Assembly (NCBI GenBank): GCA_963705915.1
Contig: OY970126.1
Coordinates: forward strand, 515,552-579,551
Origin: an uncultured bacterium
Lineage (GTDB): Bacteria; Patescibacteriota; Minisyncoccia; UBA6257; 2-01-FULL-56-20
DNA length: 64,000 bases
Direction of reading: 5' to 3'
A model generated the notes under the pieces. The model was not told where the DNA came from, did not search any database, and saw only the letters and a list, made by a program, of their open reading frames with translations. Position numbers and translations under genes: made by a program. Positions within the stretch are counted from its first letter, which is position 1. Each line of letters starts with the position of its first letter. This document shows positions 11,234 to 32,246 of the stretch, piece after piece.

Positions 11234-11337
11234 GGATTTTTTAGGTTTTGTTTAGGTTTATTGTATGACTTTGCATCTATAGTAGCAAATAGCACATTAA
11301 AAGAATCTAAAAAAACAATTAAAAATAAATAAAAATG

Positions 11338-11434
11338 CTAGGGCTTCCTGAGGGGCTCTCGGAGCCGCGAAGGCGGCGAGAGGCGAGGCGCGCGTCCAGT
11401 AGGACGCGACGCCGTACCCGAAGGAGGTCCTAGC
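11338..11434. repeat. Hairpin-flanked structured element, copy A (closing IR ctagggcttcc/ggaggtcctag with AT-rich extended arms; internal two-hairpin core)
   Basis: Perfect terminal inverted repeat. Core has CGGAG, then a hairpin with GAAG loop (gccgc-gaag-gcggc), then GAG, then a second hairpin (ggcg-cgcgtcc-agta-ggacgcg-a-cgcc) with a bulged A. Same architecture as copies B-D. Confidence 0.6.
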
Positions 11435-11444
11435 GTTTTTATTT

Positions 11445-11891
11445 TTATTGCAGAATCTCTTCTATTTTCTTCTCCAAGGCTTCGTTCGAAAGCGGACGCG
11501 GAGCTTGCGGCTTTGCGGCGGGAGCTTCAGCTCCCGGCGTTGCAGAGCGCATTGGTCGACGCGGTCGGCGCATGGCACCCATGTTCGGCATAATCTTTTC
11601 CGCGGCCGGCGGCGAGGCGATGATCATAGAACGCAAAACGTCGGTGCGTGAATTCAAATCTTTTTCCAAATTCTTGGCATTTTCCGGATAGGCGCGGAAG
11701 TTGCAGTACGCAAAGACCGCCTCCTTGTGCTTCTTGATTTCGTAGGCGAGCGCCAGGTTTCGGGCTTTCGGTTCAGCCGATATCTCTCCCTCATGTTGAC
11801 CGATGAGCGTTAAAACATTCGGTAAATCCGCCTCGGTTTTGATGAGAACGGCGATTTCGTATTCCTTTTTGTCGATATCCTCGCGATTCAT
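11445..11891 (-). CDS. rpsF: 30S ribosomal protein S6 with extended Ala/Pro-rich C-terminal tail
   Basis: YEIAVLIKTEADL...EGEISAEPKARNLAYEIKKHKEAVFAYCNFRAYPE matches the S6 fold. Sits upstream of ssb as in the conserved rpsF-ssb cluster. Confidence 0.85.
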   Translation of the reverse strand: MNREDIDKKEYEIAVLIKTEADLPNVLTLIGQHEGEISAEPKARNLALAYEIKKHKEAVFAYCNFRAYPENAKNLEKDLNSRTDVLRSMIIASPPAAEKIMPNMGAMRRPRRPMRSATPGAEAPAAKPQAPRPLSNEALEKKIEEILQ

Positions 11892-12070
11892 GTTTAGCTA
11901 TGATAGCAAGGGTTTCGGTGATTGTCCAGGCCTATTTTTTAATAAGAATTTAACCCCGCATATGGATAATGGATGATGCGGTGGGGATGGCACAATGGTT
12001 GACCCTGTCTTGGGGGCCAGGGTTCACGGGGTCCGGATTCCCCGCACCTCCACCGCGCTTTAATACAAAA

Positions 12071-12103
12071 CAAAAAGACCCGTTGATGGGTCTTTTTGTT
12101 TTG
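12071..12103 (-). terminator. Intrinsic terminator downstream of rpoBC (aagaccc-gttgatg-gggtctt plus T-run)
   Basis: Perfect hairpin followed by tttttgtttt, immediately 3' of the 12118 stop. Confidence 0.55.
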
Positions 12104-12117
12104 GCGAAGTCTATCGC

Positions 12118-15100
12118 CTATTTCTCAGATGCCCCACCGCTCGGTGCCGCCGCAGCAGCCACTTCCTCCTCTTCTATATCTTCTTCGTGAAGGATGTGAA
12201 CGCCTTCAATATCCTGTTTACCGGCCGGGATCAGGCGGCCGATGATGACGTTTTCCTTCAAGCCGCGGAGTTTGTCCACCTTGGCTTCGATGGCTGCTTT
12301 CACGAGGACACGAGATGTGTCTTGGAATGAAGCCGCGGAAAGGAATGATTCAGCAGAAAGTGCAATGCGGGTGATGCCAAGCAATACCTCTTCTGATTTG
12401 GCGAGTTTCGCGCCCTGTTTCTTGAGCTCCTTATTCACTTCGAGGAACTTGGACTTCTCAACAATCTCGCCCATCACGAAGTCAGGTGCATCGCCGCCTT
12501 CCGTAATCTTCACGCGCGAGAACATCTGCTTCACGATCATTTCGATATGCTTGTTGTTGATCGAAGCGCCTTCGGAGAGATAGATTTTCTGGACTTCATT
12601 CACAATGTAGCGAGCGACTTCACGCATGCCCTTGTGTTCATACAACTCGTGGATGTCGAGGTTGCCTTCGGTGAGGAGGTCGCCCTTCTGAACCTTGTCG
12701 CCCTGATGGGCAAAGAACACCGTGCCGCGCGGGACGCTCACTTCCTGAGCTTTGGCCTTCTTGTTTTCCGCGATAAAGCGGATCGTCTTCAAATTGCCCT
12801 TTTCTTCGATCTTATCCACCGTCCCGTCGAATGGTGCGAGGATAGCGCGGCCCTTCGGTGAACGGGTTTCGAAAATTTCTTCGACCCGCGGAAGGCCGTG
12901 CGTGATGTCGGCACCGGCGACACCGCCCGAGTGGAAGGTGCGCATGGTGAGTTGAGTGCCCGGTTCGCCGATGGACTGTGCGGCGAGAACGCCGACGGCC
13001 GTGCCAAAGGCAACCGGTTTGCTCACGCCGAGATCAAAGCCATAACAACGTGCGCAAATGCCATAAAGCGTTTTGCACGTGATGGGTGACCGCACGATGA
13101 CTTCATCAATCTTGGTTGCTTCGATCGCTTCGGCCATCTCCTTGGTGATGGTTTCATTCGCACGGACAAGAATCTTGTTGCCGACTTTGATGTCGTGAAG
13201 CGCGGTGCGGGAATAGAGTTTCGATGAAAAACTCTGATTGAATTCTTTGCCGTCGCTGCGGAGGATGTCGATGCCTTCCTTGGTGCGGCAATCTTCCTCG
13301 CGGATCGTGAGATCCTGCGACACGTCAACCAAACGGCGCGTGAGATAACCAGCCTGCGCGGTCTTCAAAGCGGTGTCGGTCGTGCCTTTGCGGGCGCCGT
13401 GCGTCGAGATGAAGTATTCGAGAACCGACAAACCCTCCTTTAGGGACGACTTCACGGGAAGTTCGATCGTCTCGCCTTTCGGGTTTTGCACGAGTCCTTT
13501 CATACCCATCATCTGGATCGGCTGCGACCATGAACCGCGGGAACCGGAATCAACGATCTGGTAAATAGAATTGTCGATCGGCAAAATGCCGGAGACAATC
13601 TTCGCGAGCTCATTCTTGGTGCGCTCCCAAACGCTGATGACGCGGCTGCGGCGTTCGGCTGCGGTGAGTAAGCCTTCCGCAAATTGTTCGTGGATGAGAT
13701 TCACTTCGGCGTCGGCCTTCTTCATCACTTCCACTTTTTCCGGCGGGATCACGAGATCTGCCATCGCCCAGGTGATACCGGAGGTCGTCGCCATGTCGAA
13801 ACCGAGGAACTTCACGCGGTCGATCACGTCGCGCGTGGCATCCATGCCGTGGTCATGGAAAATCTTACTGAGCAACTGGTTCAATTTCTTCTTTGTTATC
13901 ACGTCGTTCACGAACGGGATCGTATCGCCGAGGGCGCGATTGAAAACCAAGCGGCCGGCGGTCGTCTCTATACCCTTCACGATGATCGGTGTATGAAGCG
14001 TGATGGCGCCGAAATGATGCGCGAGGAGCGCCTCATCTAAGCCGGTCATATGCTTTACCGGACCCTGTCCTTCAATTCTGCGGGTGAGATAGTAGCAACC
14101 AAGGACAACGTCATTCCACGGACCCGGGATGAGATCACCGGTCGCAGGCTTGAGCAAGTTTTTGCCGGCGGACATGATTTCTTCCGCTTCTTTCTGTGCT
14201 GGTTCGGAGAGCGGCAAGTGAACGGCCATTTGGTCGCCGTCGAAGTCTGCGTTAAACGCTGCGCACACGAGCGGCGGCAATTTGATCGCCAAGCCTTCAA
14301 CGAGCTGCGGACGGAACGCCTGCACCGACAAGCGGTGCAACGTTGGAGCGCGGTTCAAAAGCACGCGCTTCCCCTGCATCACTTCTTCGAGAACGGCGAG
14401 CACTTCGGGCGTGTGTTCTTCCATGTAACGCGAGGCGCTGCGAATGTTATGGGCCAAGCCGCGCTTGATGATCTCGGAAACGACGAATGGGCGGAAAAGT
14501 TCCAAGGCCATGCGCTTCGGAATACCCATCTCGTCGAGCTTCAATTTTGGACCGACGACGATAACCGAACGGCCAGAGTAGTCCACACGCTTACCGAGCA
14601 AGTTCTGACGGAAGCGACCCTGTTTGCCTTTCAACATGTCGGCGAGCGAGCGAAGCGGACGGCGCTGAGCGCTAAGCTGCTGGGTGCCGAAACGGGCCGA
14701 GTTATCAATCAAGGCATCAACAGCTTCCTGCAGCATGCGCTTTTCGTTACGGACGATCACGTCCGGCGCTTTGATCTCGAGCAATTTCTTGAGGCGATTG
14801 TTGCGGTTGATCACGCGGCGATACAAATCGTTCAAGTCGGACGTGGCATAACGGCCGCCGTCGAGGGCCACCATCGGACGGAGATCCGGAGGCAGCACGG
14901 GGAGCGAGGTCATGATCATCCATTCCGGCCGAGAGCCATTGCGGATCATCGCTTTGAACATCTTGAGGCGACGAAGCAGCTTGCTCTGGGCGAGCGGATC
15001 TTTGGCGCCTTCGAGTTCGGTCTCAATCTTCTGGATTTCTTTCTTGAGATCCATCTTTTCGAGAATCGAACGGACGGCCTCTGCACCGGATGAAGCCTTG

Positions 15101-18100
15101 AAAATGTTGCCGAATTTGCGCGAGAGCGTGAAGTATTCGTTCTCTGAAAGAATCTGGCCGACATGCAAGTCTTCCAAATAATCCTTGGTGGTGTCGGCGG
15201 CTTCGAGAATCTCGCCTTTCACGGCTTTGTCTTTATTGCCGACGGTCTTTAATTTGCCCTTGAGTTCGCGATCCAACTCGGCGAGGGCTTCCTTGCGGTT
15301 GTCTTCTTTTATTTCCGTGATGATGTATGCCGAATAATAAATGACGCGCTCCAATTTCTGTGCCGACACATCGAGCGAGAGCGAAAGGCGCGACGGGATG
15401 CTCTTCAAAAACCAGATGTGGCTCGCGGGTGTCGCGAGGGCGATGTGGCCGATGCGTTCGCGGCGGACCGCTGCACGCGTCACTTCAACACCGCACTTGT
15501 CGCAGACAACGCCCTTATAGCGGATCCTGCGATATTTGCCGCAGTAGCATTCATAATCTTTCGTTGGGCCGAAAATGCGCTCGGAGAATAAGCCATCTTT
15601 TTCAGGCCGCTGCGTGCGGTAGTTGATCGTCTCGGGCTTCGTGACCTCGCCATGCGACCAGCGCGCAATGTCTTCCGGCGAGGCAACGGTGATACGCAAC
15701 GCCGAGAAGCTGTCTTTGCGATCGGTTTCTGATTCATAAAGCGGTTGGATGTTGAATCCGAGCGACTTCAATTCGTTCACCAACACATTGAACGAGGCCG
15801 GAACGTTCGGCTCTTTGATCTGTTCGCCGCGGATGATCGATTCGTATGCCGCAGCACGACCAATCACGTCATCGGATTTGATCGTGAGCATTTCCTGAAG
15901 CGTGTGTCGTGCGCCGTAGCCTTCGAGCGCCCAGACTTCCATCTCACCGAAGCGTTGGCCGCCGAACTGCGCTTTACCGCCAAGCGGCTGCTGAGTGATG
16001 AGCGAGTATGGACCGATCGAACGCATGTGCGCCTTGTCTTCCACAAGGTGGTTCAGCTTGAGCATATAGATCTGACCAACGGTCACGCGATTATCGAACG
16101 CAACGCCGGTGCGGCCGTCGAAGAGCTTCACTTTGCCGTCTTTCGGAAGGCCAGCTTTTTCGAGTTCCGTTTCGATTTCGGCTTGCGTGGCAGAATCGAG
16201 TCCCGGCGTGATGGCACGATAGCCGAGCTTCGAAGCAGCCCAACCAAGATGGGTTTCCAAAATTTGTCCGAGGTTCATACGGGAGATGACGCCGAGCGGA
16301 TTCAAAACGATGTCAACCGGCGTGCCGTCTTCGAGATACGGCATATCTTCCACGGCGCGCACTTGCGAGATGACCCCTTTGTTGCCGTGCCGTCCGGCGA
16401 GTTTGTCGCCCGCCTGCACTTTGCGGAGTTCTGCGATTTCAACCTGAATACGCCGGATGATGCCGGGTTCGAGTTTGTCGCCGCGTTCGCGATCGAACAC
16501 TTTTACGTTCACCACACGACCGATTTTACCGTGCGGAAGCGTGAGCGACGTATCTTTCACGTCGCGCGCTTTTTCACCGAAGATTGCGCGCAAAAGCCGC
16601 TCTTCTGAGGTGAGTTCCGATTCACCTTTCGGAGAAATTTTACCGACAAGAATGTCCCCCGCTTTCACTTCGGCGCCGATGCGGACGATGCCTTCTTCAT
16701 CAAGGTTCTTCAATTTATCTTCTGAAACGTTAGGGATGTCGTAGGTCGTCACTTCCGGACCAAGCTTCGTATCACGCACGTCGCAGGAATATTCATCAAT
16801 ATGGATAGAGGTGAAACGATCGTCGCGGACGACGCGCTCGGAAATGATGATGGCGTCCTCAAAGTTTGCACCTTCCCATGAGACGAAGCTCACCAGAAGA
16901 TTTTGGCCTAATGCGAGCACGCCGTTTTCAATGGAAGGTCCATCGGCGAGGATTTGCCCTTTCTTCACTTTGTCGCCGGACGTGACGAGCGGACGCTGGG
17001 AAATACAGGTGAACTGGTTTGAACGCTTGAATTTCTCAAGCGTGTAATTCTTGGTTGCTTTTGGATATCTCACTTTGAGATGGGCTCCATCAGCTTCGAG
17101 AATTTCGCCATTTTCTTCGGCGACGATCACGTAGCCGGAGTCGAGCGCCACTTTTTCCTCTTGACCCGTTGAAACATAAGGCGCATCAGGCTTTACGGAC
17201 ACGACTGCCTGGCGTTGCATGTTGGAACCCATGAGCGCCCGGTTCGCATCGTCGTGCTGCAAGAACGGAATGAGCGACGTGGCAACGGAAACGAATTCAT
17301 GCGGCGCGACGTCGATATAATCGACTTCGTCCGGCGTCACCGTTCCCGGCTCACCTTTAATACGCGCTTCGAGCAACGGGCCAACGAGTTTGTCGTTTTC
17401 ATCCCGCTTGCTGCCGGCATGGGTAATCTTGTATTTTTCTTCTTCCGAAGCATCCATCCAAACAACGTCTTTCGTAATGACACTGTTCGTCACCTTCATG
17501 TACGGCGCCTCAAGGAAACCGAAATCGTTGATGCGGGTGTAGCTTGCGAGGTAGTTGATGAGACCGATATTCGAACCTTCCGGCGTCTGAATTGGACAGA
17601 TGCGACCATAGTGCGAGCGGTGCACGTCGCGCACTTCGAAACTCGCGCGCTCACGGGTGAGACCGCCCGGACCGAGCGCGGAAATGCGGCGCTTATGCTC
17701 AAGCTCCGCGAGCGGGTTCACCTGGTCCATAAATTGCGAGAGCTGTGAGCTTGCGAAAAATTCTTTGATGACGGCTGCGATCGGGCGGAAATTCACGAGC
17801 TGTGCAGGTTGAAGATTGTCTTTGTCTTCGGTCGACATGCGGTCTTGAATGATACGACGCAAGCGAGCGAGACCGATACGCAAACGGCCCTGGAGTAATT
17901 CGCCGACCGCCTTTAAGCGGCGATTGCCCAGGTGGTCGATGTCGTCCGGTTCAGCATCCGGGTCGTTATTTAAAGCGATGATTTCACGGACAATCCCAAC
18001 GATATCATCGGCATCAAGGAGCTTATAGGTCTTTTTTTGATTGAAGTCCAAACGCTGATTCATCTTGTAGCGGCCCACCTCCGAAAGGTCGTAGCGGTCG

Positions 18101-18876
18101 GGGCGCTCAAACATCGCACTGATGAGATTCTTCGCTGTTTCTGCGTTCGCCGGATCGCCCGGGCGCAAACGGCGATAGATTTCAACATATGATTCCGCAG
18201 CGTCCTTTGCGACGTCTTTCTTGAGCGTTGCATCGATGTATTTAATGAGTCCCCCGTCAACATCCTTGAATGCCGCGTGGATTTTTTCGGTCGTGAGGCC
18301 AAAGATACGGAGCAAATCGGTGACGGGCACCTTGCGGTGACGGTCGATCTTCACGCCGATTTCACCGTTGATGTCAGTTTCAAATTCGAGCCATGCGCCG
18401 CGGTTTGGAATAATTTTTGCGCCGAAAAGCTGACGGCCGCGATACGGGGTCGCCGTAAAATACACGCCCGCCGAACGTACAAGCTGGGAAACGACAACGC
18501 GCTCAACGCCGTTCACGATGAATGTGCCGCGTCCCGTCATGATCGGGAAATCACCGAAATAGACTTCTTGCTTTTGCTCCTTCCCCGTCCGCTTATTCAC
18601 CAAGCGGAGCGTGCAGCGCAACGGCGCTTCGTACGTCGCTTCTTTGTAGCGTGCCGTCGCTTCGTCATATTTCGGCTCATCAAATCGATAGTCCGAAAAA
18701 TATAATTCAAACTCCTTCCCGGTATGATCCCGGATCGGCGAGATTTCTTCGAGGAGCTCGTTTAATCCTTTTTTAAGAAACCATTCGTAGGATTTGAGTT
18801 GAGCTTCGTTCAAATTGAACGGAGCGATGAGCGACTTTGATTTACCGAACTGCTTCGTTGAGGTAAATTTTGCCAT
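12118..18876 (-). CDS. rpoBC: DNA-directed RNA polymerase beta-beta' fusion protein (rpoB-rpoC in one 2252-aa reading frame)
   Basis: The N-terminal ~1049 aa carries beta signatures, for example [18 protein letters not shown] and ...[12 protein letters not shown] at its C-terminus. A short linker TDRKDS joins it in frame to the beta' N-terminus [77 protein letters not shown]. Beta' motifs NADFDGD and the trigger-loop region follow. The junction is at about 15730. Confidence 0.9.
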
Positions 18877-20226: not shown

Positions 20227-20230
20227 TGCG

Positions 20231-21277: not shown

Positions 21278-21300
21278 GTGAATTGGAAAAATTATATCAC

Positions 21301-21423
21301 AAGGCGAAGAAGAGCGTCTGTCTTCAAGGGCTATCGGAGGCCGCGAAGGCGGCCGAGACTTCGAGCGGTCGCGCGAGCACGCGCGAACCGCGCACCTTGA
21401 AGATAGAGGCTCTTCTTCGCCTT
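21301..21423. repeat. Hairpin-flanked structured element, copy B (15-bp perfect closing IR aaggcgaagaagagc/gctcttcttcgcctt, inner 8-bp IR cttcaagg/ccttgaag, conserved core)
   Basis: Core cggag-[ggccgc gaag gcggcc]-gag-acttcg-[gcggt cgcgcg agca cgcgcg a accgc]. Lies in the intergenic gap between the 21424 stop and the ftsW start. Confidence 0.65.
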
Positions 21424-22155
21424 CTACATATTCGTTCTCAACGCATACGCTTCAAGTTCGTTGTTCGCCGGATTAATGCCGGGAATAGCTGGGTACATCA
21501 CCGAAAAACTTTCCGTTGTATTAGGAGCAAAATTATCAATCTCAGTTTGCGAAGAACCAATGGGATTGCCGTCTGCGTCTTTAAAAACCGCGACGATCAA
21601 AACGGTATCGAACGATGCGATGTCGTTGTTCGTAACCTGCCCGTTCACCGAAACGGTACTCGATCCATCTTGTGTTTGGATGTCGCTGAACGCAAATTGT
21701 GGCACGCCGCCCATCGACGAACTCACAACCCATTGTACGTTTGAGAGATCAAGCGAAAGATACGGGGCATTGACCGGGGCCTTATTCGGCGCAACAAGGT
21801 ATTTGATCTCATTCGGATAGATGTATGACGAGCCCGGGATCGTTTCAACGACCGTGCCCGATGCATTAAAAAAATCGAAATTATAATCGAACGCGACTGC
21901 GCCGAAATTGGAGTTTACGTTGGTAACTTTCGCGAGATAGGTGGCGCTTCCCGGCCCCGCCGAAAAAATCCAGACGGTCGACGTCGTGAGCCCCTGCGCC
22001 GCAGATGTTCCGCACGTGGGCCCGGTACACGGCGTTGGCGTAATCGCCGGTTTAATGAAGATATAATACATGCCCGCAAAGAATGCGAGCCAAAGAAGAC
22101 CGTAGAATGTGCCGTAAATGAGCTGTTTGGCCCGACGGGAAGACATATCATTCAT
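21424..22155 (-). CDS. Hypothetical membrane-anchored protein (start moved to MNDMSS... to clear the 5S rRNA 3' end)
   Basis: The ORF track extends to 22191, which would overlap the 5S rRNA. The internal start at 22155 is followed by a TM helix LIYGTFYGLLWLAFFAGMYYIF. Confidence 0.55.
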   Translation of the reverse strand: MNDMSSRRAKQLIYGTFYGLLWLAFFAGMYYIFIKPAITPTPCTGPTCGTSAAQGLTTSTVWIFSAGPGSATYLAKVTNVNSNFGAVAFDYNFDFFNASGTVVETIPGSSYIYPNEIKYLVAPNKAPVNAPYLSLDLSNVQWVVSSSMGGVPQFAFSDIQTQDGSSTVSVNGQVTNNDIASFDTVLIVAVFKDADGNPIGSSQTEIDNFAPNTTESFSVMYPAIPGINPANNELEAYALRTNM

Positions 22156-22183
22156 TATAGCAACAAAAAAACGGCCCTTTGAT

Positions 22184-22298
22184 GTCGGCACATCCTACGT
22201 TCCCCATCGTCGAAACAATGAGTATCATCGGATTGGAGCGCTTTCACTTCTCTGTTCGGAATGGGAAGAGGTGGGACACGCCCGAATAAAGCACCGAC
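22184..22298 (-). rRNA. rrf: 5S ribosomal RNA
   Basis: Reverse complement reads ...GTGTCCCACCTCTTCCCATTCCGAACAGAGAAGTGAAAGCGC...GATGGGGAACGTAGG..., matching the 5S loop B/C consensus. Terminal helix is gtcggtgc/gtgccgac. Confidence 0.8.
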
Positions 22299-22333
22299 AT
22301 CAAAAGGTCGTTTTTTGTTGTAGAGAAAACAGC

Positions 22334-22440
22334 ATTTGTGTTTGTGGTTTGGAGGGTGTCACGGAGGCACGAAGGTGCCGAGTGTCAGCGGTCGCGCCAG
22401 CAGGCGCGAACCGCGACCCTACAAATCACAAACACAAATG
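22334..22440. repeat. Hairpin-flanked structured element, copy C, in the 23S-5S internal transcribed spacer (14-bp closing IR catttgtgtttgtg/cacaaacacaaatg)
   Basis: Core cggag-[ggcac gaag gtgcc]-gag-tgtc-[gcggt cgcgcc agca ggcgcg a accgc]. Base pairs covary relative to copy B: cgcgcg/cgcgcg in B versus cgcgcc/ggcgcg here, and ggccgc/gcggcc versus ggcac/gtgcc. Confidence 0.65.
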
Positions 22441-22569
22441 CGTAAGTCAGCATTGGGATGGTTGGCGGGATTATTAGTATCACTTGGCTTAACGCATTGC
22501 TGCGCTTACACCTATGACCTATCAACGTCGTAGTCTTCGACGAAATCACGCACACCTAATCTTGGGGTG

Positions 22570-22602
<33 letters not shown>

Positions 22603-22691
22603 CTTCCATACATAGCTACTCGGCAATTCACCTGGTGGCAAAGCCGATAGACCAGAGGTATGTTCAGTCCAGTCCTCTCGTCGATTACTCA

Positions 22692-23463
22692 CATATTACT
22701 ATGTGCTCAGACTATATCTTCATCCTTCCGCAAAGCGGTGTCGGACGTCGGCATATTATAGCGATTCAAAAACCGCTATCCGGTCATTCGGTATAGAACC
22801 GAAGACACAAGTCGTTACGGGGTCAAACCAAAAATCGTTTTTAATTCTTCTTTGGATCTTTTCTTTCTTGTAGCATAATTTTCGGATTGAACAATCAATA
22901 TATTATCTATTAATTGTTCTTTGACTGGCGACAAGTCGCAGCCAGCAGACAAAAGTAGTCGAGCTGAACTTATAATAGCTTGTGCCTGTTTCTTTTTAAA
23001 TTTAAGAAATGGCAACAAACTTTCTAAAATGTTCATCACCCGTTTGTGTCCGTTGATTCGCAGCTCCGTCATCCCATCATTTCTCCGATAAATGTATCCT
23101 ATGCCCAAGACTGTCCTGATCCAATGGAGCGGTTGGTCATGCCGGGAATCCTGATAAAAACAGATGGTCAGCATGACCCTTCGTGTTTTTAATCGAGATT
23201 CTGAACGCCGCTTGAGTTGTATCATCAAGCTACCATCTCCGTCCAAGAATCCAGCGATATACGCTAGATCGATTTGAGATTGACTTCCCACGGTATTGCC
23301 CTGTTCTTGTACCATATCTCAATGGTAAGGAATGAGGACCGTAATTCAAGCTGCCTTTAATAAATTTTTAATAAAAATATTAAGGACGCCGAAGTAAGAA
23401 TAGGGTTTCACCGTTATTAGCCGAGTTGGCAATCTGGATTACTCCAGAAAGTAGCAATTTCTT
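22692..23463 (-). mobile_element. Intron (presumed group I) in 23S rRNA at the sarcin-ricin loop region, carrying a LAGLIDADG homing endonuclease ORF
   Basis: Exon sequences GGTCTTAGT | ACGAGAGGACTGG rejoin to the universally conserved AGUACGAGAGGACC. The 772-nt insert ends in G and begins after U. About 270 nt of non-ORF sequence remains for a ribozyme core. Confidence 0.6.
22815..23315 (-). CDS. LAGLIDADG-family homing endonuclease (intron-encoded)
   Basis: LAYIAGFLDGDGSLMIQLK motif. 166 aa, single-motif type. Lies entirely within the 23S insertion. Confidence 0.85.
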   Translation of the reverse strand: MVQEQGNTVGSQSQIDLAYIAGFLDGDGSLMIQLKRRSESRLKTRRVMLTICFYQDSRHDQPLHWIRTVLGIGYIYRRNDGMTELRINGHKRVMNILESLLPFLKFKKKQAQAIISSARLLLSAGCDLSPVKEQLIDNILIVQSENYATRKKRSKEELKTIFGLTP

Positions 23464-23503
23464 ACTAAGACCAACTCCCCTCAAGTGTTAAACGCCTGCA
23501 GCA

Positions 23504-23544
<41 letters not shown>

Positions 23545-24428
23545 ACGTGCCACTTTAATTGGCGAACAGCCAAACGCTTGGGAGCTTCTCCACCCCCGCG
23601 CTGTGGCGAGCCGACATCGAGGTGCCGAGCATTGTCGTCGCTAGGGACGCTCGGACAATACTAGCCTGTTATCCCCGGAGTAGCTTTTATCCGGTGTCTC
23701 CGGCCTTTCTATCAAGAATTTAATGAATCGTAAGAAACAATAAATATAGCCGTCGGGTCACTAACTTCTGCTTTCGCACCTGCTCGACTTGTAGGTCTCG
23801 CAGTCAAGCCAGCTTTTGCGTTTGCACGTCCTGCCCGATTTCCATCCGGGCTAAGCTGACCTTAATAAACTCCTCCGTTACTCTTTTGGAGGAAAACGCC
23901 CCATTTAAACTGCCTACCAAGCACTGTCTCAGTTGGGTTTCCTCTAGGGTCCCCAACCGGTTAGACGTTAAAGTTCTAAAAATGGCTGTTTCATTGTCGG
24001 ATCCACACAACCCGAGAGCTGTGCTTCAAATCCTCACCACTACGCTACGTAGTAGAACTCTAAAATCAATACCAAGCTGCAGTAAAGCTTCCGGGGTCTT
24101 TTCGTCCCGCTGCAGGTATCCCGCGTCTTCACGGGAATCGCATTTTCACCGAGCTTGCCTCTGAGACAGTTCTCCGGTCGTTACGCCTTTCGTGCGCTTC
24201 GGAACTTACCCGAAAAGGAATTGCGCTACCTTAGAACGATTATAGTTATCGCTGACATTGACGAGGGCTTGAGTCAGTGAGCCTCCGTATTGCTACGGCA
24301 CCCCCAACCTTGACCTTCTCGCATCGGTCAGGCGTCACCCCCTATACATCCTCTTGCGAGTTAGCAGGGAGCTGTGTTTTTGGTAAACAGTCGCCAGAGA
24401 GACTTTTGTTGCAGCCCAACACCACTTT

Positions 24429-24737
24429 GATTTCAAGATTAAAGAAAGCTGTTTTTGATCCTTTTATAAAGCTCTTGCTTAGCTCTACCATGACTTTTTA
24501 ATCGTTGTTCTCTGCGAAGAGCGTCCTCAAAACTTCGATACGCTTCAATGTAAACAAATTTCCATTCGCCTACACTTCGTTTAGTAGCAGTTTGAAGACC
24601 ACGATTATGCTCAGATAATCTACGTCGAAGATTTTTTGTATGTCCGATGTAGAACTCTTTTGTCACAGTATTTTGGATGAAGTAAACAGCAAACATTTGC
24701 TCATTTTAATCCTATGCGGATTAAAAATATCTTAAAA
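24429..24737 (-). mobile_element. Compact 309-nt insertion in a 23S variable helix carrying a GIY-YIG ORF (IVS-like or degenerate intron)
   Basis: Flanked by an about 15-bp complementary pair, gcccagcaccactttg and caaagtggtgttgggc. The non-ORF part is only about 50 nt, which is too short for a group I core. Confidence 0.5.
24439..24696 (-). CDS. GIY-YIG nuclease-domain protein (85 aa)
   Basis: VYFIQNTVTKEFYIGHTKNLRRRLSEHN matches the GIY-YIG core (GIY...YIG, R, E, N). Confidence 0.7.
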   Translation of the reverse strand: MFAVYFIQNTVTKEFYIGHTKNLRRRLSEHNRGLQTATKRSVGEWKFVYIEAYRSFEDALRREQRLKSHGRAKQELYKRIKNSFL

Positions 24738-25987
24738 GCAAAGTGGTGCTGGGCAGGCCTTATCGCTAACTTACGGCCGCTTTTTTGCCTAGTTCCTTAG
24801 AGGCAAATCACTCGTTCCCCTTGGGCTACTCGCCCTATCCACCAGTGTCGGTTTACGGTACGGTTCCCATGTTTCATAACAAACACGCTTTTCTCGAAGG
24901 GCTCTTCACGATCATTAGCCAGGTAAATTCCTGACCTTCCGCCTCCGGCCGCTTGAACTTGCCGGTAGCGATATCAAACCAATAAGACACGATCGCTTAT
25001 TTCCCTTGCACGTGCAGGATAAAAACATAGGAGGGCTGGAATATTAACCAGCATTCCATCGACTGCCCCTTTCGGGATTGCCTTAGGACCGCCTAACCCG
25101 TGGTTGATTGCCAGTGCCACGGAAACCTTAGATTTTCGGGGTTCCAATTTCTCATTGGGATTGTGGTTACTCGTTCCGACATTTTCTCTTCCGGACGCTC
25201 CAGTCGCCCTCGCGGGTCGACCTTCACTGCAACCGGAATGCTCTCCTACCAGACGTGTCTCCCGAAGGAAACACGAATTCGTATCTTCGGTGCCGTGCTT
25301 GAGCCCCGATACATTTTCGGCGCCACCACCCGTCGAATAGTGAGTTGTTACACACTCTTTAAAGGATGGCTACCTCTAAGCCAACCTCCTATCTGTCTAT
25401 GGGTGATAACTACCTTTAACACTGAGCACGGACTTGGGGACCTTAGATGACGATCTGGGCTCTTCCCCTCGCGACCATGGAGCTTAGCCCCCACAGTCTG
25501 ACTAGTGAGTTTTTGACTCTCGGTATTCGGAGTTTGATTGATCTGTCGGCCTTTCGGCCTTTACAGATCATCCAGTGCTCTACCCCCAAGAGGAACACTC
25601 ACCGCTAGTCCTAAAACTATTTCGGAGAGAACCAGCTATTACGTAATTCGATTAGCTTTTCACTCCTTACCTCAGCTCATCCGAAGATTTTGAACAATCA
25701 ACCGGTTCGGGCCTCCCTCTCGATTTCTCGAGAGTTCACCCTGGCCAAGGTAAGCTCATCACGCTTCGGGTCTAGACTGTGCCGCCTATAGTTCGCCCTA
25801 TTAAGACTCGCTTTCGCTGCGCCTTCGCGCTATTCGCGCTTAGACAAGCGACACAATATAAGTCGTCGGATCATTCTTCAATAGGCACATTGTCGTTCTC
25901 GTCCGCGGATTGCTCCGCAGCCGTTCGAACTTCAATTCCTTGTAGACAAATGGTTTCAGGTTCTATTTCAACGGCCTCACCGGCCTG

Positions 25988-26024
<37 letters not shown>

Positions 26025-26998
26025 ATCTAGAAAAGTATTTAGCCTTACCAGATAGTACTGGCAAATTCCTTCGAAACTGTTTTACTTCGAAGTACTCAAG
26101 TAGGTAAACTAAGGAGACCAAAAGTTTTCGTCTACGGGGCTATCACCCGCTATGGCACTGGCTTTCCAGCCAGCTTCGACTAACTCATGATTTTTTGACT
26201 CCTCCACCAACCTCATAAATAACACAAGGTACATTGCTATACCCTATGTTATTTAGGAGGAGAGCGTTCATCACTTATAACTCCAAGGTTTGACCTTGCG
26301 ATCAGAACCTTAGTCTGGGCTCTTCCCTTTTCTCTCGCCGATACTCAGGGAATAAACTGTTTGTTCTTTGTTCCTCCGGCTACTGAAATGTTTTACTTCG
26401 CCGGGTACGCTCTTGGATTGCTCCAAGCCATTGAGGTTTACTCAACGAGGTTCCCCCATTCGGAAATTCCCGGATCACAGGTTGCTACGCACCTCCCCGA
26501 GACATATCGCTGCTACGCCGCGTCCTTCATCGCCTTTTCTAGTCTAGGCATCCACCATTCGCCCTTAATGCCAACCATCCCAATGCTGACTTAAATTTAT
26601 TTGCTCTGCCTGCCAAGAGAAATTGCGCGCGTGAAAAGTGCAAAACATCAAGCGCGTGCCTGGTCTCTCTATAATATAGAGCGGCTCCAGACATAAGATG
26701 GCGCAGAGCTACATATAATGACTCCGACTCTACAATTCGGAGTTCGTTCATGGACTATCGAACGAATTATGGAAAATTGCGTTCGACAGGATACCTAAGA
26801 AAAAAATCAGCCGCACATCGCGGCCGCTCTGCCATCATAAAATGGCGGGTTCAGCCGCTTGCTTTGAGAAGATTTTTATTCGTAAGCATCTGTCTTAGGG
26901 ATAAGTATACTCAGCTTGAAAAGGGTGTCAAGCATGATGGAAACAGATCAAAAGTTTCAAAAATAAAACCGCCTGGCGACATTGCTTGTAAAGCTTCG

Positions 26999-27358: not shown

Positions 27359-27453
27359 GTGATTGTCCTCCTTTCTTTTGTGAAGTTACTAACGAGCCTC
27401 GTGGCTCATCGCTATTATTACAGAAAAAATAAAAAAGTCAATCATGGCAATGT

Positions 27454-27482
27454 TTGAAATTTTTCTTAAAACAAGGTTAAAT
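27454..27482 (+). promoter_or_regulatory. Sigma70-like promoter for tRNA-Pro (TTGAAA, 17 nt spacer, TTAAAT)
   Basis: The -35 and -10 hexamers have ideal spacing. The -10 ends about 13 nt before the tRNA 5' end. Confidence 0.5.
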
Positions 27483-27495
27483 ACCTTGGTATCTA

Positions 27496-27566
27496 CGGGC
27501 CGTAGTATACCGGTAGTACGTGCGCTTCGGGTGCGTAAAGACTGGGTTCGATTCCCAGCGGCCCGA
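27496..27566 (+). tRNA. tRNA-Pro (anticodon CGG), CCA not encoded
   Basis: Manual fold: acceptor CGGGCCG/CGGCCCG, D-stem GTAT/GTAC, anticodon stem TGCGC/GCGTA with loop TTCGGGT (CGG, G37), T-arm CTGGG-TTCGATT-CCCAG, discriminator A. Confidence 0.65.
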
Positions 27567-27568
27567 CT

Positions 27569-27688
27569 CACAAAAACAAAGCATGGCATTATGAGGTACG
27601 CAGTCTCGCGCTACTGCGCGAGCTGCTCCGCTCTCGATCGCCTACGCGATCTCCGAGAGCCCTCATAATGCCATGCTTTGTTTTTGTG
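27569..27688. repeat. Hairpin-flanked structured element, copy D, immediately 3' of tRNA-Pro (28-bp perfect closing IR), in the reverse-complement orientation of the core
   Basis: cacaaaaacaaagcatggcattatgagg ... cctcataatgccatgctttgtttttgtg. Inside: gcag-t-ctcgcgc-tact-gcgcgag-ctgc (bulged T, TACT loop), then ctc-[gatcgc ctac gcgatc]-tccgag. This is the mirror of the A/B/C core. Confidence 0.6.
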
Positions 27689-27699
27689 CCTATTCCTTT

Positions 27700-29163
27700 C
27701 TACACGTGGAATTTTTTCTTAATCTCGTTTTCGGCTTCTTCTTTAAATTCGTCTTTGGTTTCTCGCGCCCGGTCGGCGAGCTTTTTGAGGTCGTTATCGT
27801 TCATCTTGTGCAACGCCTTCATACGTTTCAAGAGGTATGCGCGATCGTTTTTTTCTGGATCCTCCAAAACTTCTTCAAGCAGCGCAACGATGATCCATCC
27901 AACGCGCATGCCTTCCGGAAGACCGAGCTCTTTCATCACGTCGTCGCCGTTCACCTTGAGCATCTTAGGCGAAATCGGATCGTCCTTTACCTTCTCAATC
28001 ATAAAGAGCAAATGACGCAACTTGTAAGGCACGGCTTTCTTGACGCCCGAACCGATCCGGTCGGCTTCACGAACTTTTAATAAATCGGGAACGGTTTCCG
28101 GGCCAACGCGCGCAAGAAATCGCCGCACGCCATGTGCCGTCACGTCGCCAACGTTGTAATAGAACATGTGCTGGCGCACGAGGTGCGTTACGTCTTCAAC
28201 AAACTCTCGTGAGAAGCGCAATCGATCGAGCGCTTTCGCCGCCATCTTTGCTCCGATGTATTCATGGTTGTAAAACGTTGACTTCGGACCCTCACCGGCT
28301 TTCGCGCGAGGCTTGCCGGCGTCGTGAAGCAATGCGGCCATCCGGACTTCGAGTGAATACCCTTCGCGGGCGGTGTAATCGAGTGCACGGATGTTGTGTT
28401 CGAAGACGGTATAAATATGATGGAGATTTTGTTCAACGCCGATCCCTTCGCGAAGTTCAGGCAAAACATACTGGAGAAGGCCCAGCTCTTCAAGAAGCAC
28501 GATCCCCTTTGCGGCGCGGGGGGTCATCACAATTTTCACGAGCTCTTCGCGGATGCGCTCTTTCGCGATCACTTCGAGTTCGCGCGAATACTTTTCAATC
28601 GCGCGACGGGTATTCAGTTCAATTTCAAAATCAAGTTCAACAGCAAATCGTACCGCGCGCATAAGCCTTAGAGCGTCTTCATGGAAACGGACTTCTGGAT
28701 CGCCGACAGTTCTGATGATTGCTTTCTTGAGATCTTTTTGCCCGCCGTGCGGATCGATGATTTCACCGCCCAAAGACATCGCCATCCCATTCACGGTAAA
28801 GTCCCGGCGGCTCAAGTCGTCTTCGATCGTGCGAGCAAACGTGACCTCGTCGGGATGGCGTTTGTCGGTGTATTTCCCCTCAATGCGATATGTCGTGACT
28901 TCGATCACTTTGAGCTTTGAATTTTCTGAGTCGGTTTTCACGCCGACCGTGCCGAAGGTATTTTCGTAAACGCTGTCAGGAAAAAGTTTGAGAATCTCCG
29001 GCGGCTTTGCGTTCGTCGCAATATCCCAGTCTTTTGGCTCGCGCCCCAACAAAAGATCGCGGACGCAGCCGCCAACAAGATAGGCTTCAAAACCGGCTTT
29101 TGCAAGCTTCGCTGCGATTTCTGAAACTTCAGCCGGAACCGTTTTGAGGTCCGATTTCATCAT
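27700..29163 (-). CDS. cca: CCA-adding tRNA nucleotidyltransferase with C-terminal HD domain
   Basis: YLVGGCVRDLLLGREPKDWDIATNAKP (pol-beta NTase head) and a downstream HD domain (LLHDAGK). Confidence 0.85.
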   Translation of the reverse strand: MMKSDLKTVPAEVSEIAAKLAKAGFEAYLVGGCVRDLLLGREPKDWDIATNAKPPEILKLFPDSVYENTFGTVGVKTDSENSKLKVIEVTTYRIEGKYTDKRHPDEVTFARTIEDDLSRRDFTVNGMAMSLGGEIIDPHGGQKDLKKAIIRTVGDPEVRFHEDALRLMRAVRFAVELDFEIELNTRRAIEKYSRELEVIAKERIREELVKIVMTPRAAKGIVLLEELGLLQYVLPELREGIGVEQNLHHIYTVFEHNIRALDYTAREGYSLEVRMAALLHDAGKPRAKAGEGPKSTFYNHEYIGAKMAAKALDRLRFSREFVEDVTHLVRQHMFYYNVGDVTAHGVRRFLARVGPETVPDLLKVREADRIGSGVKKAVPYKLRHLLFMIEKVKDDPISPKMLKVNGDDVMKELGLPEGMRVGWIIVALLEEVLEDPEKNDRAYLLKRMKALHKMNDNDLKKLADRARETKDEFKEEAENEIKKKFHV

Positions 29164-29186
29164 TACGTAATAACTATAACCTAAAA

Positions 29187-30357: not shown

Positions 30358-30422
30358 TTCAAATTTTTGTGATATCCTCTGTGCGCAATGAACTTTGACA
30401 TCATGCAATAGAAGGAGGAACG

Positions 30423-31025: not shown

Positions 31026-31027
31026 AA

Positions 31028-31057
31028 AGGCCGTCCTTATGGGACGGCCGTTTTTTG
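31028..31057. terminator. Bidirectional intrinsic terminator (ggccgtcc-ttat-gggacggcc, then TTTTTT)
   Basis: Perfect 8-bp hairpin between the convergent pyrE (+) and pyrF (-). Confidence 0.6.
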
Positions 31058-31771
31058 TGAACGGGCTTGGAGGCCTTCGGCGATATCTTCGAGAAACGCT
31101 CGTATGGCGCCGGGCCGGTTGTTGTTCTGGACTATCTGCCTTCCAACGATCACCCGATCGGCTCCGACTTCGATCGCTTCGCTCGCGGTCATCGACCACT
31201 CTGGGTTTTGGTCGTCGCTCTCAATATGATGCCAACGTGAGCGAATGTTTGGCGTGCAGATTTTGAAATCGAATCCACTTTTCCGCAAGAGAGGGACTGC
31301 TCGAGGCGGAGCGATGATCCCGTCTAGGCCCGCTTTTTTCGCAACGCCCGCAAGCCTGACGACCACTTCTTCGAATGGATCACGGTACACATCCTCGACA
31401 TCTTCCTTTGAGCTGCTCGTGAGTACCGTCACACCCAACACCATCGTGTCCGGGAGCTCACGCTTCAAGGCACGAAGAGCTGTCGGACCGGCAGAGCATG
31501 CAGCGGTGACAACGGCAGGGTTAACACCTCGGAGGTGGGCGCCGTCGCTCTTCAGCGTTTGAAGCGTGCCGAATAATTTTACGTCGGCAAAAACCCTTAG
31601 GCTGAATGTTCTTTGCAGATGTTCAATCAGGCCATAACCAGGGTCCCTCGCAAATCCTTCGATCTTCAGAAGGACCTTCCTGTTCTTCAAAAACTCTGCG
31701 ACGGCGAAAAGGTCATCCAACGATGTATCAACAGCGACGATCAAACGTTCTTCAATGCTTGCCTCTTCCAT
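31037..31771 (-). CDS. pyrF: Orotidine 5'-phosphate decarboxylase
   Basis: LIVAVD near the N-terminus, FADVKLFGTLQT (the DxKxxD-like region) and a C-terminal VGRQIV. Paired with the PRTase gene. Confidence 0.7.
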   Translation of the reverse strand: MEEASIEERLIVAVDTSLDDLFAVAEFLKNRKVLLKIEGFARDPGYGLIEHLQRTFSLRVFADVKLFGTLQTLKSDGAHLRGVNPAVVTAACSAGPTALRALKRELPDTMVLGVTVLTSSSKEDVEDVYRDPFEEVVVRLAGVAKKAGLDGIIAPPRAVPLLRKSGFDFKICTPNIRSRWHHIESDDQNPEWSMTASEAIEVGADRVIVGRQIVQNNNRPGAIRAFLEDIAEGLQARSQKTAVP

Positions 31772-31863
31772 GTGACCTCCAAATCAAGTATCAAAAAGTA
31801 ATAGAACTTCTCACTTTATATATCATTTTCTCTTATGAGTAAAGAAGCTCTTTTATTATGGTG

Positions 31864-31936
31864 TGCCGACGGGAGGAGTCGAACCTCCGACCTAGCGCTT
31901 ATGAAACGCCCGCTCTAACCGCTGAGCTACGTCGGC
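31864..31936 (-). tRNA. tRNA-Met/Ile2-type (anticodon CAT), CCA not encoded
   Basis: Reverse complement folds as acceptor GCCGACG/CGTCGGC, D-arm GCTC-AGCGGTTA-GAGC, anticodon stem GGCGT/GCGCT with loop TTCATAA, T-arm GGAGG-TTCGACT-CCTCC, discriminator A. Confidence 0.7.
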
Positions 31937-31987
31937 AAATGCAAAATTACTATAGAGCAGATATCGCTTATTTTCAAACAAAAACAA

Positions 31988-32013
31988 TGATGTTGCGGGG
32001 GCAGGACTCGAAC
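31988..32013 (-). repeat. 26-bp tRNA-3'-end-like direct repeat, copy 1 (tgatgttgcgggggcaggactcgaac). Lacks a pairing T-stem partner, so it looks like a fragment.
   Basis: Identical to a 26-mer at 32247..32272. The reverse complement reads GTTCGAGTCCTGCCCCCGCAACATCA, a T-loop plus acceptor-3'-like sequence. Confidence 0.6.
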
Positions 32014-32034
32014 GTCGCTCGAGGACTCGCTCCC

Positions 32035-32106
32035 TCGGAACCCTCGGTTCCGAGCGGTTCGCATCGGAATGCGAACCCTCCAACACGGGGAACCTTGCGG
32101 TTCCCC
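32035..32106. repeat. Three consecutive perfect hairpins built on the GGTTC/GAACC motif (cggaacc-ctc-ggttccg; ggttcgcat-cgg-atgcgaacc; ggggaacc-ttgc-ggttcccc)
   Basis: Read directly from the sequence. Stems of 7 to 9 bp with 3 to 4 nt loops. Located between the two tRNA-like direct repeats. Confidence 0.55.
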
Positions 32107-32142
32107 GACCCCCTCCCTCGTTCTCGTCCTTGCCCAAGAAGT

Positions 32143-32245
32143 TTTTCTTTTTACCCTGAAAGGGTATGCCGGACGCGCGCAGGCGCGGAGGCGTAGGCCG
32201 CTTTCAGTAGAAAGCGAGCCGACCCTTTCAGGGTAAAAAGAAAAA
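32143..32245. repeat. Hairpin-flanked element E (23-bp perfect closing IR ttttctttttaccctgaaagggt/accctttcagggtaaaaagaaaa). Divergent relative of copies A-D.
   Basis: Internal cgcggaggcg... and a hairpin gctttc-agta-gaaagc with the AGTA loop. The hairpin-1 equivalent is degenerate. Confidence 0.45.
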
Positions 32246-32246
32246 C

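Follow-up and report, generated by a model that had tools for sequence, protein, structure and literature searches.

The window considered here, i.e., a 64-kb stretch of contig OY970126.1 from an uncultured bacterium, carries exactly five copies (named A to E) of a structured intergenic element that belongs to a large, apparently undescribed family of the Paceibacteria (candidate phyla radiation, CPR). The core of the element is a conserved GC-rich three-way junction of around 65–70 nt, which caps a long hairpin stem, P1, specific to each locus. We show that the strand on which this fold is preserved is the purine-rich one, even where the host transcripts carry its complement, and that the elements sit between the end of one transcription unit and the next promoter. 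The five copies were obtained with our own descriptor scan of both strands, and a covariance model (CM) run with its filters off returned the same five (67.7–84.5 bits). The next match of the model (15408–15489, 20.8 bits) lies inside the rpoBC open reading frame (ORF), has none of the GGA, GNAG and AGYA features described below, and was taken as a chance one. A first-pass annotation, made from the letters of the window only, had already delimited these five copies, and its coordinates are confirmed. Throughout the text, the forward form designates the G/A-rich (purine-rich) reading, which lies on the + strand in copies A, B, C, and E, and on the − strand in copy D.

A branched core on a free stem

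The core can be read from the closing stem inwards. P1 is a long stem whose inner end is a GGG(G)/(C)CCC helix. It is followed by P2, which consists of three covarying pairs NNC/GNN, a U·Y mismatch, and two further pairs; here, the 3–6 nt preceding a GGA pair with the nucleotides following a GA (e.g., CUC/GAG, CAC/GUG, or GCC/GGC). These two motifs form an internal loop, 5′-GGA-3′ facing 5′-GA-3′, with tandem sheared G·A pairs and one bulged G, beyond which comes P3 (5–6 bp, GNAG loop). A junction A follows, then P4 (4 bp), a bulged A, P5 (6–7 bp, AGYA loop), and a junction of 1–3 nt back to P1. The near-invariant unpaired letters are those of the GGA/GA internal loop, the GNAG and AGYA loops, the bulged A, and the junction A; G23 and A24, and G40 and A41 facing them, are each present in 76–78 of 79 sequences (~96–99%). 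Some copies carry long insertions at the tip of P3 while the remainder of the element is intact, including copies in which 29 nt take the place of the GNAG loop and everything else is kept.

The first-pass annotation had read the interior correctly as CGGA(G), a hairpin with a GNAG loop, GAG, a linker, and a hairpin of 4 bp plus 6–7 bp with a bulged A and an AGYA loop. Both of its hairpins thus stand, but it had missed the helix P2, and they are not independent of each other: as P2 pairs around GGA/GA, the core is a three-way junction rather than two hairpins. We also considered a kink-turn, a motif made of a canonical stem, a 3-nt bulge, tandem sheared G·A/A·G pairs, and a non-canonical stem. 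It was rejected since, in spite of the tandem G·A, the bulge is the single G22 and the covarying register of P2 leaves no space for three nucleotides.

Covariation was evaluated on a MAFFT alignment of 79 distinct copies, with a structure that we specified ourselves. Standard pairs occupy 94.8% of the cells in these 79 sequences, versus 28–45% when the partners are slid by one to three columns; 19 of the 21 core pairs change on both sides, and none of 500 shuffles matches the observed values, shuffle counts not being probabilities here because the sequences are phylogenetically related (for the same reason, the other p-values that we give are indicative only). RNAalifold independently predicts P3, P4, and P5. 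The variation of P3 is under-sampled, most sequences having been retrieved with a fixed P3; this helix covaries in the window and in the copies found by the model (GCCGC, GGCAC, GAUCGC, CGCGC, AGCGC, and GCGGC). Hence, the compensatory stem changes that had been noticed between the window copies extend to nearly all the core pairs, and the idea that they reflect a selected single-strand structure rather than a chance palindrome is borne out by the slid-partner control and the double-sided changes.

The closing stem obeys other rules. P1 measures 17–47 bp (median 27.5 bp) and its pairs are 96% Watson–Crick, with totals of 2031 Watson–Crick pairs, 47 G·U on the forward strand, 10 G·U on the complement, and 22 other mismatches. 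Its arms share no sequence across 84 copies, and most of the non-Watson–Crick pairs are held by the inner 10 bp, the outer part being perfect. Such a stem has the size of an RNase III substrate (at least 20 bp of near-perfect duplex, i.e., about two turns). Where loci are orthologous, one of the arms contains the final codons of the adjacent gene (EELPAL*), and the synonymous differences found there have their counterparts in the opposite arm. We infer that the arms may be lengthened and repaired by copying of one arm from the other at the DNA level (quasipalindrome-type template switching), selection then filtering the outcome. In three loci located upstream of the ribosomal protein S1 gene (L120, L123, and L133), the outer P1 sequence, CGCTTTTGCAAGGG, is conserved; the palindromic TTGCAA that it contains is the −35 box of the S1 promoter, which is therefore partly inside the hairpin arm.

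The inverted repeats of copies A to E, with arms of 26–33 nt, exceed all others of the window in length, and those with arms of at least 26 nt occur solely around this core. The arms are 100% complementary in D and E, 93% in B, and 92% in C (two non-Watson–Crick positions in each of these last two), and 79% over 33 nt in A, where the A/T tracts are counted. The long perfect inverted repeats of the first-pass annotation are thus perfect for D and E only, whereas its statement that the closing sequence differs in each copy is right, the five P1 arms sharing no sequence. All five copies fold as whole elements with z-scores of −10 to −14 against dinucleotide shuffles.

The family was then delineated outside the window, in loci of at most 20 kb each (labelled L001 etc.). 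A metagenome scan with a 21-mer of the P3 region, CGGAGCCGCNNAGGCGGCGAG, gave at least 120 stretches; around 70 of those listed are complete elements, the others being GC-rich coding noise. The CM gave 99 matches in 92 loci of related Paceibacteria contigs, obtained from peat, soil, and groundwater (e.g., the Ga0182030, Ga0302319, and Hainich series); among them are copies with other P3 sequences or with the long insertions at the tip of P3, one derivative that arose by deletion (L186), and copies in decay (L106). By its SSB homologs, the source bacterium falls in the Paceibacterota/Minisyncoccia, within the CPR. An SSB-based search of genome contigs returned mostly distant phyla and six Paceibacteria loci. 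In one relative, L001, whose SSB is 82% identical, the rpsF–ssb spacer carries a copy in which P1 and P5 are wholly different and yet paired, and a second copy lies between ssb and the L11 gene. On the other hand, the P3 21-mer has no match in viral contigs, and no family of Rfam 15 overlaps any copy on either strand, at the gathering threshold or at E ≤ 10, in line with the first reading of the element as no recognised named motif. In the full-text literature, we found no description of it; the sole CPR-related match concerned TIGR-Tas, whose stem-loop arrays are of a different nature. Nor did we find a repeat or RNA family that combines a branched conserved tip on a free stem with the polarity rule described below.

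Strand, orientation, and descent

The two strands of the element are not equivalent. Both fold very well (z = −7 to −16), but in 68 of 74 copies the more stable fold is that of the forward strand, the mean difference being −5.9 kcal/mol. This advantage is found in 35 of 37 copies beside gene ends and in 17 of 20 copies whose right-hand neighbour is a gene of the same strand, the situation upstream of promoters; it amounts to 17.4, 9.4, 8.6, 1.8, and 5.2 kcal/mol in the window copies. In P1, G·U pairs are asymmetric (47 on the forward strand versus 10 on the complement, p = 7.5 × 10−7), and the ratio reaches 23:2 in the 30 copies for which the complement is the only sense transcript to be expected. 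Two positions form the base of the GGG/CCC helix; among the copies that could be parsed cleanly, they are Watson–Crick in 26 cases, a tandem G·A in 21, and a single G·A in 4, with no other mismatch type, which argues for a continuous forward-strand helix and not for a deliberate disruption of the complement. These results do not bear out the first-pass proposal that the functional RNA is the reverse-complement, i.e., sense, form. A mutational strand bias was rejected as the origin of the G·U asymmetry: the usual deamination biases act on the non-template strand and on the lagging-strand template, and they predict the opposite sign. The ordinary terminators of these genomes, taken as an internal control, offer only 3 wobble pairs in 22 hairpins (308 Watson–Crick pairs, 2 wobbles on the sense and 1 on the antisense strand, 2 other mismatches), too few for a comparison. 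In the model proposed below, the strand that folds would be RNA and not a single strand of DNA.

The position of the elements is polar as well. Neighbouring genes in the metagenome loci were called with ARAGORN and with our own codon-score caller, the latter being a further reason to treat the p-values as indicative. The P4–P5 side, i.e., the forward 3′ side, is the nearer to a neighbour in 27 cases versus 6 (p = 3 × 10−4), with a median distance of 1.5 nt, compared with 114 nt on the opposite side. It faces the 3′ ends of units of the opposite strand (~36 protein genes, 9 tRNAs, one tmRNA, and 23S rRNA), whose last codons are often overlapped. Alternatively, it faces a strong promoter pointing away, for example that of the S1, SecD, AtpB, MreB, or ssb gene; such an away-pointing TTGACA-N17-TATAAT promoter scores at least 9 in 12 of 70 cases, versus 3% of shuffles. 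As for sigma-70-type promoters pointing into the element, their scores equal the shuffled background, and 2 of 70 reach 9. When two copies share one spacer, they are placed head-to-head, each facing its own unit: the pair of L085 lies between convergent genes, L206 has one copy after rpsF and another before the ssb promoter, and in L124, L160, and L175 the 23S gene is followed first by a complement-oriented copy, then by a forward-oriented one, and then by 5S. In L124, one more copy, also in forward orientation, immediately precedes the processing stem of 23S. The head-to-head pairs indicate that orientation follows the adjacent unit, being mirrored on the two sides of a gene, and a control by the direction of replication was discarded because head-to-head and mirrored copies occur within a few hundred bases. 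The first-pass annotation had given every copy the same orientation relative to local transcription; this is true for the five window copies and does not extend to the family, in which the copies just upstream of promoters, 23S, and 5S are reversed.

Most of the genes examined have a sigma-70-type promoter of their own, located from a few to ~50 nt from the ATG (in the window, at 10689–10717, 11260–11288, 11900–11928, and 26904–26931). For rpsF and L11, ~10 nt at most separate the end of the promoter from the start codon, so that the mRNAs are leaderless or have a very short leader; the ssb promoter is farther upstream. The one at 26904–26931, ~320 nt upstream of 23S, is the apparent rRNA promoter.

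Comparison of loci indicates that the copies are old and mostly vertically inherited, with gains or losses, since P3, P4, and P5 are different in each of the five window copies, and the L001 ortholog of copy A is nearer to it than any paralog. Orthologous copies with different but still paired stems are found at rpsF–ssb (window, L001, L005, L203, and L206), at 23S–5S (window, L124, L160, and L184), and between the CCA-adding enzyme gene and tRNA-Pro (window and L165), and occupied sites are common to lineages whose SSB proteins are 71–82% identical. Occupancy is also patchy. An element occupies the ssb–L11 spacer of L001 but not that of the window, where the empty site shows neither a pre-existing hairpin nor a duplication when compared with the filled one; in L006, rpsF and ssb nearly touch each other and leave no spacer for an element. 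At the rpsF–ssb ortholog site of L207 (9876–9940), we observed a hairpin of 22 perfect base pairs closed by a loop of 20 nt, UUCCUGCGAAGACGAAGUCG, and with neither U-tract nor core, which is either a version that has lost the core or an empty hairpin state.

Traces of mobility are scarce. A flanking direct repeat of at least 4 nt is present in 1 of 84 copies, a GTAG tag of the repetitive extragenic palindrome (REP) type near the 5′ end in 3 of 84, its CTAC counterpart near the 3′ end in 2 of 84, and attC core sites (RYYYAAC/GTTRRRY) in 0 of 84. A miniature inverted-repeat transposable element, which the first-pass annotation had argued against, was likewise rejected by us: the arms are locus-specific without shared terminal repeats, the flanking direct repeat is the single case just mentioned, and there is no duplication at ssb–L11.

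A proposed polar boundary and its rivals

The element finds its place among interspersed structured intergenic elements. For its function, we lean, short of an even chance, towards a protein-recognised polar boundary element that would fold in the nascent RNA of a polymerase heading toward the adjacent unit. This reading is preferred as the sole one that we found to account together for the unequal folding of the strands, the mirroring of the orientation, and the close apposition to a single neighbour. Transcripts of this kind could come from read-through of an upstream gene, or from convergent, divergent, or antisense transcription. The fast-folding GC core would nucleate the long hairpin and present the invariant loops to a putative protein partner, and the outcome would be termination or cleavage at the border, the element behaving as a polar insulator. 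The transcripts leaving the unit would carry the weaker complement and be allowed to pass. Both the partner and the insulating or cleaving outcome are conjectural. That it constitutes a truly new type of boundary RNA is doubtful in our estimation, and the same caution applies to the full scheme of a new class of boundary elements, in which a three-way-junction RNA stops or cuts incoming transcripts, lets those of the unit pass as the weaker complement, and has stems continually rebuilt by palindrome templating at the DNA level.

Several observations weigh against the polar boundary. In co-directional gene pairs, there is no evident source of incoming transcription, unless the neighbouring promoter also fires divergently. 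Copies in the orientation that would be active lie just upstream of 23S and 5S (L124 and L175), with no promoter between the upstream copy and the rRNA gene (a short stretch examined by eye, for 23S in L124); a strict terminator placed there would block rRNA synthesis, so that cleavage or antitermination must be assumed. All 11 copies at stable-RNA 3′ ends (9 tRNAs, one tmRNA, and 23S) appear as the complement in the sense transcript, 0–20 nt from the mature end, and resemble a 3′-end module of these genes. Within the core helices alone, the wobble count is only 11 G·U on the forward strand versus 7 on the other, and the conserved U·C/U·U mismatch (columns 18/45) would be G·A or A·A on the complement. 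Finally, since G·T and tandem G·A pairs are stable in DNA too, the strand asymmetry is no proof of RNA.

These 3′-end copies lead to the strongest of the rivals, a processing or stabilising hairpin acting on the sense strand, as already envisaged in the first-pass annotation, which we consider possible but improbable. Here, the pyrimidine-rich P1 duplex would be cut by RNase III or a similar nuclease, the cut would define 3′ ends and separate neighbouring RNAs, and the core would merely cap and nucleate the hairpin. Known RNase III hairpins, such as the stems flanking rRNAs and the intercistronic sites of phage T7, are without a branched, conserved tip, and the RNA in which they act is the sense transcript. 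The elements share with them duplexes of at least 20 bp between rRNAs, tRNAs, and cistrons. The median P1 is indeed close in length to the rRNA stems of these genomes (24 bp for the 23S stem of L124, 23 nt for the 5S stem of the window) and longer than ordinary terminators (10–19 bp); the distance from the gene end to an element with its complement on the sense strand is within ~12 nt, or ~20 nt in the case of 23S, for all 11 stable RNAs and for ~36 protein genes, and the sense strand, like the other, folds very well. However, it is this sense form that folds worse in 68 of 74 copies, and, in precisely the copies from which the sense RNA would be made, P1 would contain 23 A·C mismatches versus 2 G·U. 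Its loops and internal loop would be all-pyrimidine, and processing explains neither the invariance of the loop letters nor the mirrored copies upstream of promoters, 23S, and 5S.

The second rival operates at the DNA level. The element could be a REP-like, selfish repeat, with a mobile or once-mobile GC-rich core that folds as single-stranded DNA and is tolerated in intergenic regions; its arms would grow by template switching around the core, and the orientation bias would come from the insertion mechanism or from purifying selection. We regard this as rather unlikely. In its favour, the copies are numerous and dispersed, present or absent at orthologous sites (ssb–L11; rpsF–ssb, missing in L006; the coreless hairpin of L207), and sometimes deleted or decaying (L186 and L106); they lack a promoter of their own; the mismatches of P1 are internal and its outer part perfect, as expected of outward arm growth; the longest inverted repeats of the window surround only this core; and the ordinary terminators are perfect palindromes likewise. 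Against it stand the absence of shared terminal repeats, of GTAG/CGTC tags, and of attC-type sites, the single direct repeat in 84 copies, the lack of a match in viral contigs, the differences between window copies in P3, P4, and P5 together with the proximity of copy A to its L001 ortholog (which point to old, vertical copies), the covariation of the arms with synonymous changes of the neighbouring gene, and an orientation, including that of the head-to-head pairs, set by the adjacent unit and not by replication.

Comparison with known repeats leads to the same mixture of likeness and difference. The REP/BIME (bacterial interspersed mosaic element) and REPIN sequences of proteobacteria are palindromic repeats tagged by GTAG or CGTC (PMC3733652). 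Like our elements, REP/BIME are dispersed multicopy intergenic hairpins found just after stop codons, between transcription units, in which single-strand folding matters, and they are credited with roles in mRNA 3′-end protection, termination, and DNA topology. In REP, however, the palindrome itself is conserved between copies, carries a terminal tag, and is dispersed by a RAYT transposase, while here the stem is locus-specific, only the branched tip is conserved, the tag is found in 3 of 84 copies, and orthologous copies are old. Integron attC sites have conserved R and L boxes at the base and a variable tip. They resemble the element by the primacy of structure over sequence, the folding of one strand, which is the complement of the mRNA, the extrahelical bases, and the location directly after a stop codon; the difference is that here the tip is conserved and the base variable, that no RYYYAAC/GTTRRRY site is present, and that the neighbours are housekeeping, rRNA, and tRNA genes instead of cassettes. 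The GC clusters, or double-hairpin elements, of fungal mitochondria are recently mobile, near-identical, and bordered by short target duplications. They are also small GC-rich two-hairpin elements in AT-rich spacers beside rRNA and tRNA genes of a compact genome, but the copies studied here have diverged, are kept at orthologous sites, and end in long stems that differ from locus to locus.

A terminator of the plain type, possibly bidirectional and with an unusually elaborate tip, is very unlikely. The elements are always between a stop codon and the next promoter, most of the genes examined having their own; like bidirectional intrinsic terminators, they are palindromic and lie between convergent or tandem units; and copies A and D, with about one fifth of the copies, have A/T tracts at the base of P1 as in local terminators. 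On the contrary, a T-rich tail (at least 6 T per 8-nt window at the 3′ end of P1) is present in 16 of 75 copies (~22%) and a T-rich or A-rich tract in only 16–18 of 75, so that ~78% are without a T-tract, and this is where the first-pass judgement that they are not generic terminators is upheld. A scan for the intrinsic-terminator consensus calls none of the copies. Canonical terminators coexist in the same genomes with stems half as long; some elements lie inside the 23S–5S spacer or between tRNAs, where read-through is needed; the loop holds a conserved junction of 65 nt; and intrinsic termination requires neither invariant loop letters nor a rule of polarity. The ordinary terminators of these genomes, observed at 12066–12103, 48517–48550, and 10206–10238 of the window and at many further loci, are perfect palindromes of 10–19 bp that include the A- and T-tracts, and they look bidirectional.

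Somewhat less probable again is an independently transcribed, purine-rich small RNA, present in many copies, which would have a long terminal stem and bind or sponge a protein. The purine-rich strand is the well-folded one, the 5′ spacer is AT-rich with a mild excess of −10-like hexamers 6–12 nt upstream of P1, and the head-to-head pairs could share a divergent promoter; but this excess is confounded by the AT-rich spacers, full promoter scores into the element do not exceed the shuffled background (2 of 70 at 9 or more), the 43-nt spacer between the paired copies of L124 has no convincing promoter, and most copies have no terminator tail. Two known systems of nascent or structured RNA can be set beside the element. 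HK022 put and EAR are cis-acting RNAs which act on RNA polymerase from downstream of a promoter and cause antitermination. Their size (~65–70 nt), their two stem-loops with conserved bulges or internal loops, and their action in the nascent transcript recall the element, which differs by lying upstream of promoters or after genes, in many copies, and with no sequence similarity detected through Rfam. TIGR arrays are tandem, lie beside a Tas gene, and contain hairpins that enclose variable single-stranded spacers with box C/D-like motifs (PMC12045711). They were excluded because the copies are dispersed singletons or head-to-head pairs with a paired, covarying interior and no variable unpaired segment. 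Lastly, a new self-cleaving ribozyme or excised element, which a small multicopy three-way junction with ~20 invariant unpaired or closing nucleotides, a variable closing stem, and a location in spacers between RNAs could evoke, appears very improbable: no Rfam ribozyme family matches either strand at E ≤ 10, the invariant letters lie in hairpin and internal loops, as in protein-binding sites, with no conserved core centred on the junction, and the copies whose GNAG loop is replaced by the 29-nt insertion keep the rest of the element.

Window copies and their surroundings

Copy A lies on the + strand between rpsF and ssb. Its 5′ arm (11327–11349), an A-tract followed by GCTAGGGCTTCCT, pairs by 20 Watson–Crick and 3 G·U on the + strand with the 3′ arm (11422–11444), which ends 0 nt from the stop codon of rpsF (11445–11891, −), with ssb downstream, as the first-pass annotation had placed it. 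The core (11350–11421, 84.5 bits) starts with a tandem GA and GGGG, then P2 (CUC/GAG), GGA (11361–11363), P3 (11364–11377, loop GAAG), and GA (11378–11379); P4 (GGCG/CGCC), P5 (11391–11408, loop AGUA) with the bulged A, and GUACCC complete it. In copy B (+), the 5′ arm (21301–21329) has the start codon of FtsW 23 nt to its left and is touched by the promoter TGATATAAT; the core (21330–21394, 67.7 bits) contains GGA at 21336–21338, P3 at 21339–21354 (GGCCGC/GCGGCC, loop GAAG), and P5 at 21369–21386 (loop AGCA), and the 3′ arm (21395–21423) is 0 nt from the stop of a 255-aa ORF (21424–22191, −). This ORF has no Pfam match and overlaps the 3′ flank of 5S.

Copy C (+) fills the 23S–5S spacer. Its 5′ arm (22332–22357) is 33 nt from the 5′ end of 5S rRNA (22182–22299, −), its core (22358–22415, 79.7 bits) has P2 CAC/GUG, GGA at 22363–22365, P3 at 22366–22379 (GGCAC/GUGCC), and P5 at 22392–22409 (loop AGCA), and its 3′ arm (22416–22441) abuts the 3′ end of 23S rRNA, whose conserved 3′ flank starts at ~22443. 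This context, also correct in the first-pass annotation, rests on the true 3′ exon of 23S, which matches positions 2654–2912 of the large-subunit (LSU) rRNA model and lies at 22462–22701, the gene being interrupted by a putative group I intron; consequently, the whole-window Rfam call that ends 23S at 23320 is misleading. The 23S gene extends over 22449–26578 (−) and its interruption, near the 3′ end, over ~22702–23319. The insert, which contains a LAGLIDADG endonuclease ORF (22815–23315), is group I intron-like (39.4 bits with RF00028, short of the gathering score). The 5S rRNA is enclosed by a 23-nt inverted repeat (22166–22188/22294–22316, 91% complementary), presumably its processing stem.

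Copy D is on the − strand. The 5′ arm (27661–27688) and the stop codon of the CCA-adding enzyme gene (27700–29163, −) are 11 nt apart, and the 3′ arm (27569–27596) begins 1–2 nt past the 3′ end of tRNA-Pro (27496–27567, +), again in the position first described; between them, the core in its purine-rich form (27597–27660, 75.5 bits) has GGA at 27652–27654, P3 at 27636–27651 (GAUCGC/GCGAUC, loop GUAG), and P5 at 27605–27622 (loop AGUA). Copy E (+; arms 32140–32165 and 32222–32247) has the most divergent core of the five (32166–32221, 71.4 bits), with P2 UAUGCC/GGCGUA including a U·G pair, GGA at 32171–32173, P3 at 32174–32187 (CGCGC/GCGCG, loop GCAG), a P4 of 3 bp only, and P5 at 32199–32216 (loop AGUA). 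Its 3′ arm is ~7 nt past the 3′ end of an unusual tRNA(CAU)-like gene (32254–32324, −). This gene, missed by ARAGORN and best matched in Rfam by tRNA-Sec (32.4 bits), has a 6-bp anticodon stem, the loop CCCAUAA, a short D arm, and its own TTGACA-N17-TATAAT promoter ~30 nt upstream.

Other features of the window and of related loci deserve mention. In the window, rpoB and rpoC are fused in one ORF of 2252 aa (12118–18876, −); the fusion is also called in L001 and L207, and the rpoBC region is called as many fragments in L203 and L205. In L084, a 31-nt fragment (6398–6428) with the form of a tRNA 3′ half (T arm and acceptor strand) directly follows an element which itself follows a complete tRNA-Arg; a split or permuted tRNA was rejected, a matching 5′ half not being found on the contig. 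Downstream of ssb–L11, the region 15657–20489 of L203 encodes two DNA methylases, a protein resembling restriction enzymes, and an integrase of the phage type; it is probably an inserted island, as the window has no comparable genes at that position.

CPR bacteria are uncultured, and the way in which their transcripts are ended, separated, and insulated is almost entirely uncharted. What is new here is a widespread and strongly covarying element, present at dozens of independent loci, with invariant loops that call for a partner protein and a rule of position and polarity. If it acts as RNA, it would be a new class of structured RNA and a handle on the architecture of transcription units in these organisms. 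If it acts as DNA, we would be dealing with a novel type of interspersed repeat, conserved at its tip and free in its stem, and with a natural case of palindrome growth around a stable core. Should the polar-boundary reading be true, the very compact, one-promoter-per-gene genomes of Paceibacteria would possess a dedicated insulator system. In any case, the covariance model can be used at once for the annotation of Paceibacteria genomes.

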